From: a virus
Lineage: Duplodnaviria; Caudoviricetes
Strand: one strand, 5' to 3'
DNA: 64,000 bases
Virus record (IMG/VR): IMGVR_UViG_3300035422_000089
Span: 9,670-73,669 of that record
In this document: positions 4,921 through 60,789 of the stretch, piece after piece
How positions within the stretch are numbered: the first letter of the stretch is position 1
Layout: each line of letters opens with the position of its first letter
Translations under genes and position numbers: made by a program
The notes under the pieces: generated by a model
What the model saw: only the letters and a program-made list of their open reading frames with translations
The model's database searches: none
Told to the model about the DNA's origin: nothing

Positions 4921-5764
4921 ATGGACAATAGTAATATTGCAAAACGAATGAAAAAATATGAAGCAGTACATAAAAGTGTATTGATGAATCGTATGCCAGT
5001 CATCCTTCGTCTTTGACGGCAAGGCATTCCACACATTCACCAGAGGATTCAAAAGACCTTTTGATGATGTTCTTATTATGACAATGCAGGAAACAGCGAA
5101 ATATCTTTGCGAGAATATACAAGGTTGCTCATTAGCCTATACACAGTCAGATGAAATTTCTTTGTTACTAATTGATTATCAGAGATTTGAAACGTCGGCA
5201 TGGTTTGATTATGAAATACAGAAAATGTGTAGTATTTCTGCAAGTATGGCGACTATGGCTTTTAATCGGATATTCAGTGAAACTGTGTCTGATTTGAAGG
5301 TTGATAATACAAAAACAATGGATAGATATTTTGAGGTTGCTTATTCAGGAGCCATGTTTGATGCCAGAGTCTTTAATATTCCACGAGAAGAAGCGACAAA
5401 TTACTTCTACTGGCGGCAACTTGATGCTTCCAGGAACAGTATTCAGATGGTAGGACAAGCAAATTTCAGTCATAAAGAATTACAGAATAAATCTTGCAAT
5501 GATATTCAGGATATGCTTATGACTCAGAAAGGAATCAATTGGAATGACTTTCTTACATATCACAAACGTGGGAGCTGTGTGATAAGAACAGAAATAAAAA
5601 CGGATAAAATAGATACTATGGAAGAAATGTCGTTTGGAGAAAATAAAAAATCTTCGATAGTAAATATCGAAAGACAACATTGGATTATTGATAAGGATAT
5701 TCCGATTTTCAAAGGTAAAGGCAGACAATATATTGAACGGTTTGTGAATGTAGGAGAGGTGTAA
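4921..5764 (+). CDS. tRNA-His guanylyltransferase (Thg1)-like 3'-5' polymerase, split by a +1 frameshift at CTT-TGA-C (5011-5017)
   Basis: Joined reading ...MPVILRL/DGKAFHTFTRGFKRPFD..., YTQSDEISLL, FDARVFNIP, WRQLDASRNS. Confidence 0.85.
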
Positions 5765-9240: not shown

Positions 9241-9792
9241 ATGTTTGGAGCGAAGAAAGAAGAAATTCAGAAAAGCAATTATGAATTACAATTAGAAAAT
9301 GAAAAGTTAAAGATTGAATCAGAAATTTTGCGGTTTAAATTAGATCAAATAAATGAGAAAAATTCTATCTTAGAAGATCAACTAAGAGAAGCGAGAAATG
9401 TTAATACAGAAAGAATCAAAGCAGAAAATGAATCTTTGAAGAAAGAAATTGTAGATTTGAAGTTTAAGATGTCAACCGATACTACACAGATTGAGGTTGA
9501 AACAGAGAATAAAAAGATGAAAGCACAGATAGAAATTCAGAAGTCAGAGAATAAACATCTCAAAGACTTGCTTGATGCTTATAGATCAATGCCAGACGTG
9601 AAGAATATGGTAGATAGTCTTTCAAGCTTAGCAGTGCCACATTTGGATGAATTAAAGACATTTTCTAAAATGATTTCTGACGCAAAAGTATCTCAGTTAT
9701 GCGAAGAATTATCTATAACAAATAAGTCTATGCAGAATGTTAGAGATGAATTGAGTTATGTCTTTGATAGACTTCGTGGAAGTAGATTCTAA
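9241..9792 (+). CDS. Coiled-coil protein
   Basis: E/K-rich heptad pattern. Confidence 0.7.
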   Translation: MFGAKKEEIQKSNYELQLENEKLKIESEILRFKLDQINEKNSILEDQLREARNVNTERIKAENESLKKEIVDLKFKMSTDTTQIEVETENKKMKAQIEIQKSENKHLKDLLDAYRSMPDVKNMVDSLSSLAVPHLDELKTFSKMISDAKVSQLCEELSITNKSMQNVRDELSYVFDRLRGSRF

Positions 9793-10862: not shown

Positions 10863-10921
10863 AAAGGATACGAATGTTCACTAGTGAAGAAAGCTGCGCA
10901 GCTACTAAGTAATGGTGAACA
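10863..10921 (+). promoter_or_regulatory. Double-palindrome leader E2 (57/59 identical to E6)
   Basis: AAAGGA-tacga-ATG; TTCACTAGTGAA and AGCTGCGCAGCT enclosed by TGTTCAC/GTGAACA. Confidence 0.75.
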
Positions 10922-11692
10922 AAAATTAAAGTATTAGAATTATTCGCAGGAACTTGTTGCTTATCAAACGGATTCAAAGCAAGAGGACATGAAACATATA
11001 CGATTGATATTGATAAACAATTTGATGTTGATTGGCATATGGATTGTAGCAAGATTACTACAAAGGATATTATTGAAAGATTTGGTGTACCAGATGTTAT
11101 TTGGTTAGGAACTCCATGTCAAAGTTATAGTATAGCAGCCATCTCACACCATAGAAGAAAAAATGAAGAATCTGGGAATTTAGATGGTGTAAGCAATTTT
11201 GCGAGATTCTGTGATGAAATGAATTGGCACTGCAGAAAAATAGTTGAGGAATTATTAGAGATTAACCCCAATTTAATTTATTTTTGGGAAAATCCAAGAT
11301 CTGCTTTTAGAAAAATGGATTTTATTCAGGGGATACCAAGATATACGATTTGGTATTGTAAATATATGACAGAGTTTCCACCAGAACAAAGAAGAGCCAA
11401 GCCAACAGATTTATTTACAAATCATCCGAACCCTAAGTTTTTACCTGAGTGTAAAAATGGTTCTCCTGACCACGCAGTTGCTAAACGCGGTATGGCAACA
11501 GGAACTCAAGGGATGAAAAATGCAAAAGAAAGAAGTACATATCCAAAACAATTGGTTGAACATATAGTTGATATTTGCGAGCAGTATTTACACGAAAAAG
11601 AATTATTTGATGAATGTAAATCTTGTAAAAACAAATGGTCTTCTATGAAGTGTGATATGTGTGAAGACTTTGATATGTATAAAAGGCAATAA
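10919..11692 (+). CDS. Small C5-cytosine methyltransferase-like protein; true 5' end upstream of track ATG, no in-frame ATG/GTG/TTG before motif I (ATT 10925 candidate)
   Basis: In-frame KIKVLELFAG (motif I) upstream of 11039, GTPCQS (IV), WENP (VI). Confidence 0.75.
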   Translation, partial: TKIKVLELFAGTCCLSNGFKARGHETYTIDIDKQFDVDWHMDCSKITTKDIIERFGVPDVIWLGTPCQSYSIAAISHHRRKNEESGNLDGVSNFARFCDEMNWHCRKIVEELLEINPNLIYFWENPRSAFRKMDFIQGIPRYTIWYCKYMTEFPPEQRRAKPTDLFTNHPNPKFLPECKNGSPDHAVAKRGMATGTQGMKNAKERSTYPKQLVEHIVDICEQYLHEKELFDECKSCKNKWSSMKCDMCEDFDMYKRQ

Positions 11693-11715: not shown

Positions 11716-11763
11716 AAAGGAGTAAGAGGTTTGCTGGCCAGCATTAAAGATTGTCTTTACTCC
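11716..11763 (+). promoter_or_regulatory. Double-palindrome leader E3
   Basis: GGAGTAA..GAGGTT-TGCTGGCCAGCA-t-TAAAGA-ttg-TCTTTA-CTCC, TTG start 9 nt later. Confidence 0.7.
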
Positions 11764-11772
11764 AAAATGTAA

Positions 11773-13065
11773 TTGAGAAGAGAAAAAGAATTAAGAAATT
11801 GGGAACTGGTAAATTTCTGTGAATTTGATAAGTACGCAATTAAAAGCTACTGTGCAATTCATGGTGTAGACGAGAGTTTAAACCTTGGTGATATTACTAA
11901 GGTTAATGAAACAAAATTAGAAGATTTTAATATGATGACATGGGGATTTCCATGTACCGATATTTCCGTAGCCGGAAAGCAAAAAGGATTTTTAGACGAA
12001 GATGGTAACAAAACAAGAAGTGGCATGTATTATGAAGGAATTCGTATTCTTAGACATAAGAAACCAGCATTATCAATTATTGAAAATGTAAAGAATTTAA
12101 CAAGTAAGCGATTTAAAAAAGAATTTGAAACAGTTTTATCGGACTTAGATGAAGCAGGATATAACTCATATTGGAAAGTTTTGAATGCGAAAGACTTTGG
12201 GATCCCTCAAAATCGTGAAAGAGTATTTATTATATCAATTCGTAAAGATTTGGATAATGGCAGATTTACATTTCCTGAAGGTTTTGATAATGGAATCCGT
12301 TTGAAAGATATTTTGGAAGATGAGGTAGACGAAAAGTATTATATTTCTGATGATAAAGTGCAGAGATTTTTAACAAATCTAAATACTAATACTTCTTTAC
12401 TATATGATCCGTGTCAGGTAAAAAGAGAAGGTAAATCAAGGGAATATAATGATTACTGTCCAACTCTAACTTCAAGAGATTACAAAGATTCCAGATTAGT
12501 AAATGAAAATGTTGTTAAACAAGTAGGTAATATTTCTGATTGTAATGGGAATTGGAAGAATCCACAAGTGGGGAGAATTTATGATCCTGATGGTTGTTCA
12601 CCGACATTAAATACTTGTGGCAAAGGTAGCCATGAACCTAAGATTGTTCAGGTTGGTAATGTAAATCCATCTGGTAAAGGTATGAATGGTAATGTATTTT
12701 CAGAAGATGGACTAGCACCAACTTTAACAACAAATAAAGGTGAAGGAAATAAAATTTTAACAGGTATTAGAATCCGCAAACTAACGCCAAAAAAAACTTT
12801 CAGGCTTATGGGATTTTCTGATTCAGCATATGACGCTGCAAGCAAAGTTGTTAGTAACAGCCAGCTTTATAAACAATCAGGGAATTCAATAGTAGTAGAT
12901 ATTTTATATTACATATTAGTTGAGTTATATAAGGCAATGCCATATCTGTTTGATGATTTGAAACTGAGCAGTTTCTTCTCAGGTATTGGTGCATTTGAGG
13001 CTAGTTTGGACAGATTGTATGAAAGCATCAATACAGGAAATTTTACCAAACCACAAGTGGAGTAA
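11773..13065 (+). CDS. Circularly permuted, multi-TRD C5-cytosine DNA methyltransferase
   Basis: Order II-III-IV(GFPC)-VI(ENV)-VIII(QNRERVF)-three PTL-type TRD repeats-IX-X(YKQSGNS)-I(FFSGIG) at the C-terminus. Confidence 0.9.
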   Translation: MRREKELRNWELVNFCEFDKYAIKSYCAIHGVDESLNLGDITKVNETKLEDFNMMTWGFPCTDISVAGKQKGFLDEDGNKTRSGMYYEGIRILRHKKPALSIIENVKNLTSKRFKKEFETVLSDLDEAGYNSYWKVLNAKDFGIPQNRERVFIISIRKDLDNGRFTFPEGFDNGIRLKDILEDEVDEKYYISDDKVQRFLTNLNTNTSLLYDPCQVKREGKSREYNDYCPTLTSRDYKDSRLVNENVVKQVGNISDCNGNWKNPQVGRIYDPDGCSPTLNTCGKGSHEPKIVQVGNVNPSGKGMNGNVFSEDGLAPTLTTNKGEGNKILTGIRIRKLTPKKTFRLMGFSDSAYDAASKVVSNSQLYKQSGNSIVVDILYYILVELYKAMPYLFDDLKLSSFFSGIGAFEASLDRLYESINTGNFTKPQVE

Positions 13066-13079
13066 ATTCTGCTTGTGGT
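13038..13079 (+). other. -1 programmed ribosomal frameshift signal 1
   Basis: In-frame A_AAT_TTT, 5-nt spacer, 14-bp stem ACCACAAGTGGAG(T)..TTCTGCTTGTGGT region 13050-13079 with the 0-frame TAA in the loop; -1 frame open into 13098 ORF. Confidence 0.8.
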
Positions 13080-13382
13080 GAATATAAACCAGTTTTATTG
13101 GGTGGTATTGGAGAAATTAATTTTGGTAAACAATATCGCCAAGGTAATCGTGTATATGATTCTAATGCAATAGCAATGTGTTTAACAGCACAACCATTAG
13201 GTAACGCTGGAGGATATAGTTATCTGTATGCTGTTGGAGCCGCTATGCGTGGCAGATATAATTCTGATGGTAAAACTGAACAACAGATAGAAGTAAGGGA
13301 TGACGAGTTATCTAATGCAATTACAACGGTATGGAAAGATAGTTTGGTTGTAGAAAATTTTCAGAAACCGCCAATGAGTTGA
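13044..13382 (+). CDS. TRD-like extension 1 of the C5-MTase (-1 frame)
   Basis: QGNRVYDSNAIAMCLTAQ and LSNAITTVWKDSLV resemble the TRD repeats in the main ORF; no good SD of its own. Confidence 0.75.
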   Translation, partial: YQTTSGVNSACGEYKPVLLGGIGEINFGKQYRQGNRVYDSNAIAMCLTAQPLGNAGGYSYLYAVGAAMRGRYNSDGKTEQQIEVRDDELSNAITTVWKDSLVVENFQKPPMS

Positions 13383-13396
13383 TATTCGTTGGCGGT
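13355..13396 (+). other. -1 programmed ribosomal frameshift signal 2
   Basis: In-frame A_AAT_TTT, 5-nt spacer, 13-bp stem ACCGCCAATGAGT-TGAT-ATTCGTTGGCGGT with the stop at the loop; -1 frame open to 13564. Confidence 0.8.
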
Positions 13397-13564
13397 ATAG
13401 AAAGTAAAAAGTGGTTGGATAATGGCAAATATTTATCAAGAAACTATAAACAAGGGTATCGAGTATATGATTCAGATGGTATTGCATGTGCTTTAACAGC
13501 ACAAGGAACAGGAGGATTGGGTGGGTATTCAGGATTGTATCTTGTTAGAAAAAAGAAGTATTAA
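13361..13564 (+). CDS. TRD-like extension 2 of the C5-MTase (-1 frame again)
   Basis: QGYRVYDSDGIACALTAQGTGG. Confidence 0.75.
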   Translation, partial: SETANELIFVGGIESKKWLDNGKYLSRNYKQGYRVYDSDGIACALTAQGTGGLGGYSGLYLVRKKKY

Positions 13565-13605: not shown

Positions 13606-13911
13606 ATGGAAATCATGAAAGTAAAAAATTATAAGGTATTTGCAGAGACATTAAAAAAGAAAACTGGATGTGAAGCCACTATCAAGATTATGAATAGTAA
13701 AGATCACTATCATTTTCAGTTGAATAAAGATGGTATTTCTCTTGGAGTATTATGTCTTGATCAAGGAGAAGCGTCTTTTGCTCCGTTTGTGTCACTTGAT
13801 ACGGCAAAAGATGATCAGTATATCAATGTAAAGTATATGCCAATGCTTGAAGATTTTATAGGTGTTCTAAAGGTATTTGATGAAATGTTTGTTTGTGAAG
13901 AAGAAGTATAG
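13606..13911 (+). CDS. Hypothetical protein
   Basis: 101-aa ORF, AGGAG SD. Confidence 0.7.
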   Translation: MEIMKVKNYKVFAETLKKKTGCEATIKIMNSKDHYHFQLNKDGISLGVLCLDQGEASFAPFVSLDTAKDDQYINVKYMPMLEDFIGVLKVFDEMFVCEEEV

Positions 13912-57456: not shown

Positions 57457-60400
57457 TTGACAGTACAAAAAAGAGATGGGCGCAAAGTTAAATTTGATAA
57501 AGAAAAAATCAAGATAGCTGTATTGAAAGCATTTATTGATGTAGATGGCGAGGAAACAGTTTATGCAAAAGAAAAAGCCAGGGATATCGCTAATTTTATA
57601 GAAGCTTTAAATAAGAGCATGACTGTTGAGGAGATTCAGGATCAGGTAGAAGAAAGACTGATGGCAAGTAATCGTAAAGATGTGGCAAGAAAATACATTA
57701 TATATAGAAATAACAGAACCGCCATTAGAGAGAAAAATACACAATTAATGAAGGATATTTCTGAAAAGTTAAATGCAGATAACGTTCAAAACCAAAATGC
57801 AAATGTAGATGAGAAATCTTTTGGAGGAAGAGTAGGAGAAGCAAGCGACACTGTTTTAAAAAAATACGCATTAGATAATTGTATGTCAGAAATGGCAAGG
57901 AATAATCATTTGAATAATGAAATCTATATACATGATTTAAATAGTTATGCCGTTGGGATGCATAATTGCCTATCCATCCCATTTGATAAGTTATTAGCTG
58001 AAGGATTTAACACAAGACAAACAGATGTAAGACCGGCGCAATCGGTAAGTACAGCATTTCAGTTAGTAGCAGTTATATTTCAGTTACAGTCTTTACAGCA
58101 ATTCGGAGGTGTTTCAGCAACGCACCTTGACTGGACAATGATTCCATATGTAAGAAAGAGTTTTTATAAACACTATATAGATGGATGCATTTATATTGAA
58201 GGGAAAGATAGTTGTTGGTTACAGCAAAATATTTATGATTATATTAACGATCCTGAATGCTTCGCTGAGGAACAAGGTATTGAATCTGATTTGTGGAAGG
58301 AACTACCTAAAGTTTACAAATATGCAATGGATAAAACAGAAAAAGAAGTATATCAAGCGGTGGAAGGACTCTACCATAATTTAAACACGCTACAGAGTCG
58401 ATCAGGGAACCAATTACCATTCACTTCGATTAATTATGGCACTTGTACAGAACCAGAAGGTAGAATGGTTACAAAAGCGTTATTGGAAGTTTCGATTAAT
58501 GGAATTGGAAGATTACATAAGACAAGCATTTTTCCTTGTGGAATTTTTCAATGTATGAAAGGTGTGAATAGGAAGCCAGGAGATCCAAATTATGATTTAT
58601 TTAGACTGGCACTTAAATCTACGGCACAGAGATTATATCCTAACTATGCAAATGTAGATTGGTCTGGTAATGAAGGATATGATAGAAATGATCCAAAAAC
58701 ATTTTTCAGTACAATGGGATGTGTTGAAGGAAATGAAATTATAACATATAAATTTAAGAATAACTTATATGTAGAATCTTTTAAACGAATGTGGTATCGC
58801 CTCTCTGATTATTTTGATATCAAACAACAAGTCAATGGAAATAATGAAAACTTATATTTGGAAGTTGATGATATAAAAATATATGATACAGAAAAAGGTT
58901 TTGTTTCAGTTAAAAAAGTTATTAGGAATACCAGCTCTGAATGGTTAAATGTAAAAATGTCACATGGTCGTTCATTGATTTGTACCATAGATCATCCATT
59001 TCATACAAATAGAGGAAGAGTTAGAGCTGATGAACTAAAAAAGAATGATGTTATAAACATTAATCCTTCTCAATATTATGAAGAAAATCTTGTTTTTGAT
59101 GAACATAAGGCATGGCTGCTAGGATTTATTTTGTGTGATGGATGTTACGATGGACATTTATCATCATCTATTGCACTTGATACTGAGGATGATATTGAAG
59201 TGGCTTACATTGAACGAATGAAAGAATGCTTTGATAGTAATATAGAAGTAATAGAAAGACACAGAGGATCAAAGGGAAATTATAAAGATTTATGTTCTGT
59301 TGGAAATGTTACAGGGATTATTGATTATTTGTCAACAAAGTATGAAGGGCTTACAAAAGCAAGAAGGCATATTCCTAATGAAGTATTTTCATGGAATTAT
59401 AATGCCAAATTAAGTTTCTTAGCAGGAATGATTGACGCAGATGGCTATATAAATCCAACAACACATAACGGATCTGTTGTACAAATCGGATCAACAAATA
59501 AAGAATTAGCATTGCAACAAATGGCATTAGCACAATCATTAGGAATGCCATGTGCAGTATATCAAAACCATTATTCAAAAAAGAATCCAAATGCAATAAG
59601 ATACAGAATTGAATTTGCACCTAGTGACGATTTGCTAACATTTATTGTGTCACATAAAAAACTTGATAATTATGTAGAAAATGAAACAAATTATTGTTTT
59701 TTCAAGTCAGAAGTAAATAGTGTAACAACAATCAGTAATATGTCTGAATATAGCTATGATGTAGAAACGGAAAGTGATCATTTTGAAGTTAGTGGAATTT
59801 ACAGTCATAATTGTAGAACTGCAAATGGATGGGATATTAACGGATTTGGACAATTAAAAGATGGAAGAGGAAATATTTGTCCTGTAACAATTATTATGCC
59901 AACATTGGCAAAAGAAGCAGAGGAATACATAGTAAATAATGAAACATTTTGGGGAACCAAAGAAATTGTTGATTATTTTATGCAATTATTAAACCAGAAA
60001 ATTCATGAAGCAAAGGATATGTTACTTGAGAGATTTGAATGGATTTGTAATCAGTCACCCGACTCAGCAAAATTTATGTATGAAAATGGAGTTATGGAAG
60101 GATATGATGGGAAAGATATTCGTTCTGCTCTAAAACATGGAACTCTTGCGATTGGTCAGTTAGGATTAGCAGAAACACTTCAAATTCTTATTGGGTGTGA
60201 CCACACAACAGATAAGGGTATGGAGCTTGCAAAGCAAATTGAGCAGATATTCAAAGATAGATGCACTGAGTTTAAAGAACAATATAAATTGAATTTTGGA
60301 GTATATTATACACCTGCTGAAAATTTGTGTTTCACATCCATGAAGAAATTTCAAGAAAAATATGGTGTAATTCCTAATGTATCTGATAAGAAATTCTTTA

Positions 60401-60789
60401 CAAATTCAATTCATGTTCCTGTGTGGATTAAAATGACACCAACAGAAAAAATTGATATTGAATCACAACTTACTGGTTATAGTAGTGCTGGATGTATAAC
60501 ATATGTTGAACTCGAAGGAAGTGTAAAAAATAATTTAGATGCACTTGAGACTATTGTAAATTATGCAATGGATAAAGATATTCCTTACTTTGCAATTAAC
60601 GTTCCGAATGATATGTGTACGAATTGTGGATATTGTGATGATATCAATAAAGAATGTCCTATGTGTGGATGTAACGAAATTAGGAGATTGCGTAGGGTAA
60701 CTGGTTATTTAACTGGCGATTATAAAAGTGCATTTAATTCGGGTAAACAGCAGGAAGTGGAAATGAGGGTGAAGCATCAAAAGTTATAG
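57457..60789 (+). CDS. nrdD: Anaerobic (class III) ribonucleotide reductase with ATP-cone and intein
   Basis: VQKRDG cone, HNC, MG[intein]CRT, RRVTGYL glycyl-radical motif. Confidence 0.95.
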   Translation: MTVQKRDGRKVKFDKEKIKIAVLKAFIDVDGEETVYAKEKARDIANFIEALNKSMTVEEIQDQVEERLMASNRKDVARKYIIYRNNRTAIREKNTQLMKDISEKLNADNVQNQNANVDEKSFGGRVGEASDTVLKKYALDNCMSEMARNNHLNNEIYIHDLNSYAVGMHNCLSIPFDKLLAEGFNTRQTDVRPAQSVSTAFQLVAVIFQLQSLQQFGGVSATHLDWTMIPYVRKSFYKHYIDGCIYIEGKDSCWLQQNIYDYINDPECFAEEQGIESDLWKELPKVYKYAMDKTEKEVYQAVEGLYHNLNTLQSRSGNQLPFTSINYGTCTEPEGRMVTKALLEVSINGIGRLHKTSIFPCGIFQCMKGVNRKPGDPNYDLFRLALKSTAQRLYPNYANVDWSGNEGYDRNDPKTFFSTMGCVEGNEIITYKFKNNLYVESFKRMWYRLSDYFDIKQQVNGNNENLYLEVDDIKIYDTEKGFVSVKKVIRNTSSEWLNVKMSHGRSLICTIDHPFHTNRGRVRADELKKNDVININPSQYYEENLVFDEHKAWLLGFILCDGCYDGHLSSSIALDTEDDIEVAYIERMKECFDSNIEVIERHRGSKGNYKDLCSVGNVTGIIDYLSTKYEGLTKARRHIPNEVFSWNYNAKLSFLAGMIDADGYINPTTHNGSVVQIGSTNKELALQQMALAQSLGMPCAVYQNHYSKKNPNAIRYRIEFAPSDDLLTFIVSHKKLDNYVENETNYCFFKSEVNSVTTISNMSEYSYDVETESDHFEVSGIYSHNCRTANGWDINGFGQLKDGRGNICPVTIIMPTLAKEAEEYIVNNETFWGTKEIVDYFMQLLNQKIHEAKDMLLERFEWICNQSPDSAKFMYENGVMEGYDGKDIRSALKHGTLAIGQLGLAETLQILIGCDHTTDKGMELAKQIEQIFKDRCTEFKEQYKLNFGVYYTPAENLCFTSMKKFQEKYGVIPNVSDKKFFTNSIHVPVWIKMTPTEKIDIESQLTGYSSAGCITYVELEGSVKNNLDALETIVNYAMDKDIPYFAINVPNDMCTNCGYCDDINKECPMCGCNEIRRLRRVTGYLTGDYKSAFNSGKQQEVEMRVKHQKL
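58720..59811 (+). mobile_element. 364-aa LAGLIDADG-containing intein in NrdD
   Basis: Starts CVEG after MG, ends YSHN before Cys of CRT; LGFILCDG and FLAGMIDADG. Confidence 0.95.

Follow-up and report, generated by a model that had tools for sequence, protein, structure and literature searches.

Tandem -1 frameshift signals that probably append target-recognition modules to a circularly permuted phage C5 DNA methyltransferase

A 64,000-nucleotide stretch of the IMG/VR virus record IMGVR_UViG_3300035422_000089 (positions 9,670 to 73,669; hereafter the window) carries a gene for a C5 DNA methyltransferase (ORF1) followed by two shorter open reading frames (ORFs), each of which lies in the -1 frame relative to the preceding one. 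This raises the question of how the two downstream ORFs are translated and of what their products bring to the enzyme. An earlier note, made by reading the sequence alone, had proposed that two tandem -1 programmed frameshifts of one design append extra target-recognition domain (TRD) modules to the methyltransferase. The three consecutive ORFs and the two in-frame A_AAT_TTT heptamers, each with a 5-nt spacer, are indeed present (Table 1). Moreover, genuine -1 programmed frameshifting appears to be the best explanation of the locus, with a probability that we put at about 80%. This reading is supported because the signals are conserved, the stem covaries, the -1 ORFs are devoid of initiation signals, their products are under purifying selection and natural in-frame fusions exist.

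The two junctions are built alike. In each, an X_XXY_YYZ heptamer stands in the register of the incoming frame, a conserved structure starts after 5 nt, inside the canonical range of 5-9 nt, and the -1 ORF is open from the site, lacks initiation signals of its own and is selected at the protein level. As the earlier note had it, the stop codon of the incoming frame sits in the loop of each hairpin; its figure of 13-14 bp for the stems, however, has to be corrected, since minimum free energy folds give 12 and 13 bp. Its predicted products of 430, 536 (424+112) and 597 (424+106+67) amino acids are arithmetically right. That the arrangement is more than a chance occurrence is indicated by a scan of the 64-kb window for in-frame X_XXY_YYZ heptamers located near ORF ends and opening onto a -1 ORF of at least 40 amino acids. 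Eight candidates were obtained, and a strong downstream hairpin was found only at 13038 and 13355, the other six folding with -7.6 kcal/mol or weaker.

Table 1. Features of the methyltransferase gene and of its two predicted frameshift cassettes (window numbering).
Feature	Position	Strand	Evidence or remark
ORF1, C5 DNA methyltransferase of multispecific type, circularly permuted (motifs II-X, then I)	11773..13065	+	430 aa; PF00145, E 5.5e-67
Motif I segment, LKLSSFFSGIGAFE..., C-terminal to motif X	12958..13017	+	BLASTP against L100; order shared in close homologues
Slippery heptamer 1, A_AAT_TTT, 0-frame register (GGA AAT TTT = G N F)	13038..13044	+	Sequence; kept in 58 distinct junctions
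Spacer 1, 5 nt	13045-13049	+	Sequence
Candidate stimulatory hairpin 1, 12 bp, 6-nt loop holding the 0-frame stop TAA (13063-13065)	13050..13079	+	RNAfold -17.3 kcal/mol, z -4.7
First -1 ORF, 112 codons + stop (13380-13382)	13044..13382	+	Linker + module A + pre-motif-IX segment
Slippery heptamer 2, A_AAT_TTT, register of the first -1 ORF (GAA AAT TTT = E N F)	13355..13361	+	Sequence; same junction in L133, L134
Spacer 2, 5 nt	13362-13366	+	Sequence
Candidate stimulatory hairpin 2, 13 bp, 4-nt loop holding the stop TGA (13380-13382)	13367..13396	+	RNAfold -20.6 kcal/mol, z -6.8
Second -1 ORF, 67 codons + stop (13562-13564), TRD module D	13361..13564	+	Relatives in other loci; dN/dS ~0.07

Other roles for these elements were considered. 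The hairpins match no Rfam family, they were checked and rejected as terminators, and no promoter-like site was found between 13000 and 13600. Transcriptional slippage is also improbable, since AAATTTT offers no homopolymer run able to realign by one base. A third heptamer, A_AAA_AAG (13549-13555), is located four codons before the stop of the third ORF, with the -1 frame open into the next gene (13606..13911). It is probably due to chance, because no hairpin follows it (-0.9 kcal/mol) and because it is not conserved in two loci that share the second junction (L133 and L134).

Relatives of the locus were collected from IMG/VR, namely 80 loci that encode relatives of the methyltransferase and 55 that encode relatives of the two -1 ORFs; 18 further loci came from bacterial genomes and 69 from a search with an exact DNA pattern for the head of the cassette (L and P numbers below are our labels for relatives). 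Nearly all of the relatives end with ...GNF(T/I)(K/N)PQ(A/V)(D/E)* and show the same arrangement. In related phage and prophage loci, 58 distinct junctions of this design are found, each with A_AAT_TTT in frame, an open -1 ORF of 25-197 amino acids and a 0-frame stop that comes 3-10 codons after the heptamer and lies at +8 in 46 of them. The cassette-head pattern occurs in 69 IMG/VR contigs, 62 of which have a -1 ORF of at least 45 amino acids. The design recurs in dozens of independent metagenomes, in metagenome-assembled genomes (MAGs) and in IMG isolate-genome records. Two cassettes in tandem are present in the window, in L071 and in L134. Conservation of the signals in homologues was a check named beforehand in the earlier note, and it came out in favour of the proposal, with these 58 junctions and covariation in 9 of 12 stem pairs.

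A second methyltransferase family, of canonical motif order and ending with ...EHLYKAQYD..YICTDENFQNPQVD*, likewise has this heptamer and hairpin along with the -1 modules (L094, L120, L133, L134, L135 and L082). The cassette is not tied to circular permutation and ends two methyltransferase architectures. Six of the 69 pattern matches do not correspond to this cassette and were set aside (L163/L183/L201, L182, L217 and L220). In the first three of these, A_AAT_TTT is found six codons before the stop and is followed by a 113-amino acid -1 ORF without TRD motifs, which may represent another frameshift site of the same heptamer type.

Selection on the hairpin is visible in an alignment of 40 junctions (A1). 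There, 92.9% of the cells of the hairpin 1 stem are paired and compensatory changes are observed in 9 of the 12 pairs, whereas controls with a slid register pair in 39-49% of the cells (about 45%). None of 500 shuffles reached the stem values, a statistic that overstates significance because the related sequences are not independent. Wholly different stems occupy the same place in some relatives (GGAGAAGAG...CTTCTTCTCC in L021/L060; others in L120, L125 and L127). The second hairpin of the window is informative as well: the stretch coding for T-x-NELIFVGG folds with -14 to -20 kcal/mol when a heptamer stands directly before it, as in three loci, and with only -5 to -8 kcal/mol in the four loci where the same module sits elsewhere.

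The heptamer is under constraint too. The codon that precedes AAT can be GGA, GAA, ATA, CAA or TTA, coding for G, E, I, Q or L, and its third base is A in all 55 tallied junctions. From the codon usage of the genes themselves, GGA AAT TTT would be expected for G-N-F about 25% of the time. Homologues without a downstream module are also without the heptamer (L036, L055, L057, L062, L065, L072 and L023). The H_HH.U_UU.Y class, which includes A_AA.U_UU.U, is given in PMC4066793 as one of those that shift most efficiently by -1 in E. coli. As a separate observation, many relatives (L003, L026, L044, L046 and others) have a second in-frame X_XXY_YYZ heptamer, A_AAC_CCA, located where the stem begins and 9 nt beyond the first; it is the sole canonical heptamer remaining in L046.

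Could the -1 ORFs be initiated independently? Each of the 58 junctions has its -1 frame closed 0-10 codons before the heptamer, and no ATG, GTG or TTG is found in between. The region through which the -1 frame can be entered is thereby shorter than 20 codons, with the heptamer inside it. Within the -1 ORFs, the first in-frame start codon is mostly at codons 36-54 or absent, and it lies downstream of residues that are invariant in the module alignments. In the window, a TTG is found at codon 18 of the first -1 ORF and at codon 6 of the second; the former (13098) is preceded only by a distant GGTGA, which is not a good Shine-Dalgarno (SD) motif, and the latter (13379) by no SD motif. The lack of upstream starts and the late position of internal ones imply that the conserved N-termini of the modules can be made only by ribosomes arriving from the upstream frame. 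Independent initiation of the extensions, one of the observations that the earlier note held would speak against frameshifting, thus fails for this design, which has no available starts; it does hold in a sister lineage described below.

The -1 modules are protein-coding and under purifying selection. The median ratios of nonsynonymous to synonymous substitution (dN/dS) of modules located after junctions are 0.10 for module A (25 sequences), 0.12 for B, 0.08 for C and 0.07 for D, the last value coming from 5 informative pairs among 6 sequences. Synonymous divergence of the modules reaches about 0.7 (pS). In addition, nature provides the same fusion in frame: L045 has lost 5 nt of the loop, stop codon included, and in L082 the spacer is longer by one C; the frame is likewise continuous in L075 and P0048. 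Homologues joined in frame by simple indels had likewise been put forward as contrary evidence, and such cases are limited to L045, L075 and L082/L139, whereas about 60 loci keep the -1 offset and no locus has a +1 offset. The rarity of the in-frame variants, set against the loci that keep the -1 offset, speaks for a real fusion protein and for a frameshift that is retained; together with the absence of +1 variants, it argues that short and long products are both wanted.

One of these in-frame loci belongs to a sublineage ending with ...CGEF (L061, L066 and L075, ~5440-5590) which has no canonical heptamer and in which a different hairpin is preceded by a run of Cs that varies in length. In L075, the run counts nine Cs and the TRD module is in frame. 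A switch of another kind is suggested for the sublineage, by slippage on the C-run or by mutation.

What, then, is the enzyme to which the modules would be added? ORF1 has the catalytic motifs and the fold of PF00145, the match covering profile positions 22-322 of 324. Since it begins only at position 22, motif I is missing from the N-terminus. Motif I (FFSGIGAFE) is found instead after motif X, at residues 396-415, so that the canonical order I to X is not followed. BLASTP alignment with the canonical relative L100 places residues 4-388 of ORF1 on residues 15-470, and residues 396-415 on residues 2-21. The motif-I-last order is common to all close homologues of ORF1, whereas among the 150 best library representatives the canonical order is that of the majority (residue 9-10 of the query aligning to their residues 23-27). 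By its motif order, the enzyme is a circular permutant with the break between motifs I and II and motif I last. M.BssHII is another naturally circularly permuted C5 methyltransferase; there, motifs IX-X have moved to the front, unlike the arrangement described here.

Between motifs VIII and IX, ORF1 contains three tandem recognition modules of the PTL type, and its homologues vary by insertion or deletion of whole modules. Tandem TRDs and homologues differing by whole modules are the hallmark of the multispecific phage enzymes (SPR, phi3T, rho11s and H2), and several tandem TRDs between VIII and IX are what characterizes a multispecific C5 enzyme. These phage enzymes also appear among the DNA matches, and DNA and protein matches of the window methyltransferase were obtained to rho11s, H2, phi3T and SPbeta. 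Other insertions are observed in the homologues: P0104 has an in-frame HNH/AP2-type endonuclease just before ...LYESINTGNF, and P0013, P0027 and P0059 have an insert of about 200 amino acids just before motif IX.

The first -1 ORF encodes a linker contributed by the hairpin, TRD module A (GGIGEINFGKQYRQGNRVY...GGYSYLY) and an AMRGRY...TTVWKDSLVVE segment, a stretch that precedes motif IX in ordinary enzymes. Module A also sits inside other methyltransferases, as an in-frame TRD, both in enzymes of canonical order (L098, L100 and L109) and in a permuted one (L126), which marks the appended modules as genuine target-recognition domains. Its identity to M.Rho11sI is 48%, over residues 248-307 of that enzyme, and M.H2I is matched, again at 48%, by the same region of the query. 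The second -1 ORF encodes module D, another TRD type (NELIFVGG...YKQGYRVYDSDGIACALTAQ...GLYL), with relatives in L018, L039, L044, L047, L133 and L134. Pfam has no family for either -1 ORF, and a profile search with module A found no relative of solved structure. At least five module types, A, B, C and D among them, occur directly 3' of an identical hairpin in otherwise near-identical genes, so that the joint is also a place of module exchange. Among 64 distinct core-plus-extension combinations, the type of module in the extension is never also internal in the same enzyme.

In a sister lineage (L099, L101 and L110, ~2300-2700), the permuted methyltransferase ends with ...LYAEI(N/S)* without the cassette and is followed by small separate TRD ORFs. 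One of these has an ATG and overlaps, in the +1 frame, with the end of the methyltransferase gene. These ORFs may encode stand-alone TRD subunits, and the modules may also work unlinked.

Structure prediction with AlphaFold2 gave uneven results. The 430-amino acid protein of the window, for which 36 close homologues were used, yielded an unusable model with a mean predicted local distance difference test (pLDDT) score of 41.5. The in-frame fusion L045, for which the alignment was deep, has a confidently modelled core, and the model reaches template modelling (TM) scores, normalised by target, of 0.73-0.76 to M.HhaI. In this model, the C-terminal motif I forms a strand (522-526) and a helix (532-546), with mean pLDDT of 94-96 in 10-residue blocks and 83 at 541-550. 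The extension and the internal TRDs are below 50.

Several observations, besides the relatedness of the aligned sequences, weigh against frameshifting as the means of attaching these modules. Part of the stem conservation is protein constraint, since the stem arms also code in one or two frames. L046 bears a module and nevertheless has GGA AAC TTT, in which the heptamer is broken. Appended at the C-terminus, the TRDs would not occupy the place between motifs VIII and IX that is canonical for them, and with its extension below pLDDT 50 the L045 model is silent on their placement. Moreover, the sister lineage L099/L101/L110 expresses module A from an AGGAG-N6-ATG of its own, a separate SD and start codon, which means that covalent attachment is not obligatory. 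This last point leads to the view that the modules are made as separate small proteins acting in trans, by internal initiation or by termination and reinitiation at the loop stop, the heptamer being incidental. The stand-alone ORF for module A, located downstream of a permuted methyltransferase without cassette, favors this view, as do the TTG codons at positions 18 and 6 of the -1 ORFs of the window. However, the weakness of the SD context of both TTGs, the closure of the -1 frame ahead of every heptamer without an intervening start and the position of most internal starts, past invariant residues or nowhere, are difficult to reconcile with it. In addition, in-frame fusions exist naturally, and the constant A before AAT is left unexplained by this view, which we regard as improbable.

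The exchange of modules at the joint invites another interpretation, in which heptamer and hairpin would mainly be a DNA-level recombination joint or an indel hotspot, at which modules would be exchanged and expression turned on or off by indels (phase variation), and frameshifted copies would be silent stores. Near-identical genes that bear module A, B, C or D directly 3' of the same hairpin fit such a view, and so do in-frame variants that arise from short indels, be it in the loop, in the spacer or in a poly-C run. These indels are, however, of differing kinds and lie outside simple repeats, except in the separate poly-C sublineage, and an offset of -1 in about 60 loci against three or four loci in frame, without any +1, is not explained in this way. 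Neither would silent stores give dN/dS values of 0.07-0.12 across lineages with pS up to 0.7. Furthermore, compensatory stem changes point to a folded strand, and a register-specific heptamer points to translation. As the sole explanation, a DNA-level joint is therefore unlikely, if marginally less so than separate proteins; such a role could coexist with frameshifting. It could finally be argued that the downstream ORFs are what is left of a second methyltransferase in decay or have arisen through errors of assembly, and that the hairpins are due to chance, since the pieces found in the extension, a TRD and a pre-motif-IX segment, resemble the excised part of an ordinary methyltransferase. 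Recurrence in dozens of independent metagenomes, in MAGs and in isolate-genome records, along with purifying selection and covariation, makes this the least credible of the three, with hardly any probability left to it. The earlier idea of tandem -1 frameshifts of one design that append TRD modules is thus upheld by conservation, covariation, selection and in-frame fusions.

With -1 frameshifting retained as the preferred reading, the following mechanism can be proposed. One gene would be decoded in three nested ways via two successive -1 programmed ribosomal frameshifts. The majority of ribosomes would make the 430-amino acid permuted methyltransferase and terminate at the TAA in the loop of hairpin 1. 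Some would pause at hairpin 1 with tRNA-Asn and tRNA-Phe on A_AAT_TTT, slip back by one base and translate the short hairpin-encoded linker and then TRD module A, giving the 536-amino acid product. Part of these would slip again at the second, independently evolved cassette, which would add TRD module D and give the 597-amino acid product. Only a fraction of ribosomes presumably slips at each site. The appended TRDs would add methylation targets and so protect the phage DNA from more host restriction systems.

More broadly, heptamer and hairpin behave as a portable joint between methyltransferase cores and modules. It can be suggested, tentatively and at slightly less than even odds, that this portable recoding joint adds autonomous C-terminal TRDs to two C5 architectures, singly or serially, and thereby gives a fixed-ratio ladder of products with growing target sets. 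If this is true, C5 TRDs can function outside their canonical position between motifs VIII and IX, and the balance between specificities is set by frameshifting rather than at the level of transcription. The stand-alone TRD ORFs found in the sister lineage suggest, in turn, that C5 TRDs may even work as separate subunits.

The surroundings of the gene deserve a few remarks. The record that contains the window is a 73.7-kb IMG/VR viral contig, about 38% complete according to the CheckV estimate, and belongs to a large gut phage whose replicative helicase is about 34% identical to those of phages on Geobacillus, Enterococcus and other Bacillota. The window also encodes several methyltransferases, a Pnkp/Rnl-type RNA repair protein, a NAD-dependent ligase and the anaerobic ribonucleotide reductase NrdD (57457-60789), which carries an intein with a LAGLIDADG homing endonuclease. 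Upstream of ORF1, a strong SD motif, AAAGGAG (11716-11722), is followed by a 13-codon ORF (TTG at 11731 to TAA at 11770-11772) that includes a 12-nt palindrome, TGCTGGCCAGCA (11732-11743). The stop of this small ORF adjoins the TTG start of the methyltransferase (ATG TAA TTG), and the main ORF has no SD motif of its own. This arrangement may correspond to leader-peptide coupling or to a methylation-sensitive operator. Further upstream, in a small C5-methyltransferase-like gene (10919-11692), motif I (VLELFAGT) is in frame upstream of the first ATG (11039), and no ATG, GTG or TTG is found from the preceding stop to motif I; a GGTGA followed by ATT is present at ~10925. This suggests a non-canonical ATT start or another recoding event.

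How does the proposed system compare with known ones? Bacterial and phage -1 programmed frameshifting is known from few gene families, such as dnaX, insertion sequence (IS) elements and tail chaperones. The tau and gamma products of E. coli dnaX depend on a -1 frameshift at A_AAA_AAG with a downstream hairpin. As in dnaX, a bacterial-type signal, in which a short spacer separates an X_XXY_YYZ heptamer from a simple stem-loop, would give two products per gene at a set ratio (dnaX as treated in the recoding review PMC5009743). However, the dnaX protein is shortened by the shift, which relies on an SD-like stimulator upstream, whereas here whole domains would be added, the heptamer is A_AAT_TTT, the 0-frame stop lies in the hairpin loop and two cassettes stand in series. 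The tail assembly chaperones G/GT of phages also combine a conserved -1 shift with a C-terminally extended isoform made beside the short one (Xu, Hendrix and Duda 2004, as cited in PMC7230728), but they belong to another gene family with another function, and their site is single, mostly without a strong hairpin, and does not serve as a portable cassette for domains. Retroviral gag-pro-pol offers a precedent for two serial -1 events with three nested products (PMC5009743); it differs by its eukaryotic viral context, its pseudoknot stimulators, its polyprotein logic and the absence of repeated interchangeable modules. On the side of the enzymes, M.SPRI, M.Phi3TI, M.Rho11sI and M.H2I are phage C5 methyltransferases with several tandem exchangeable TRDs, like ORF1. 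Theirs are all in frame between motifs VIII and IX, whereas here C-terminal extras would be reached by frameshifting from a permuted core. In the literature searched, frameshifting was found described neither in C5 methyltransferases nor at the junctions of TRDs, and within the first 300,000 characters of PMC5009743 the terms 'DNA methyltransferase', 'methylase' and 'restriction-modification' do not occur. The mechanism itself is canonical; new are the gene family concerned, the use of two cassettes in tandem and the portability of the joint between domains.

If the proposal is true, DNA methyltransferases join the gene families that use -1 frameshifting, with two uncommon features, cassettes in tandem and a recoding signal that doubles as the joint between modules. 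There is also a practical consequence for annotation, as such modules are currently called orphan small ORFs or missed altogether. For restriction-modification, this raises the question of whether C5 TRDs can act from the C-terminus or in trans, and of whether gut phages recode in order to widen and balance their anti-restriction methylation.

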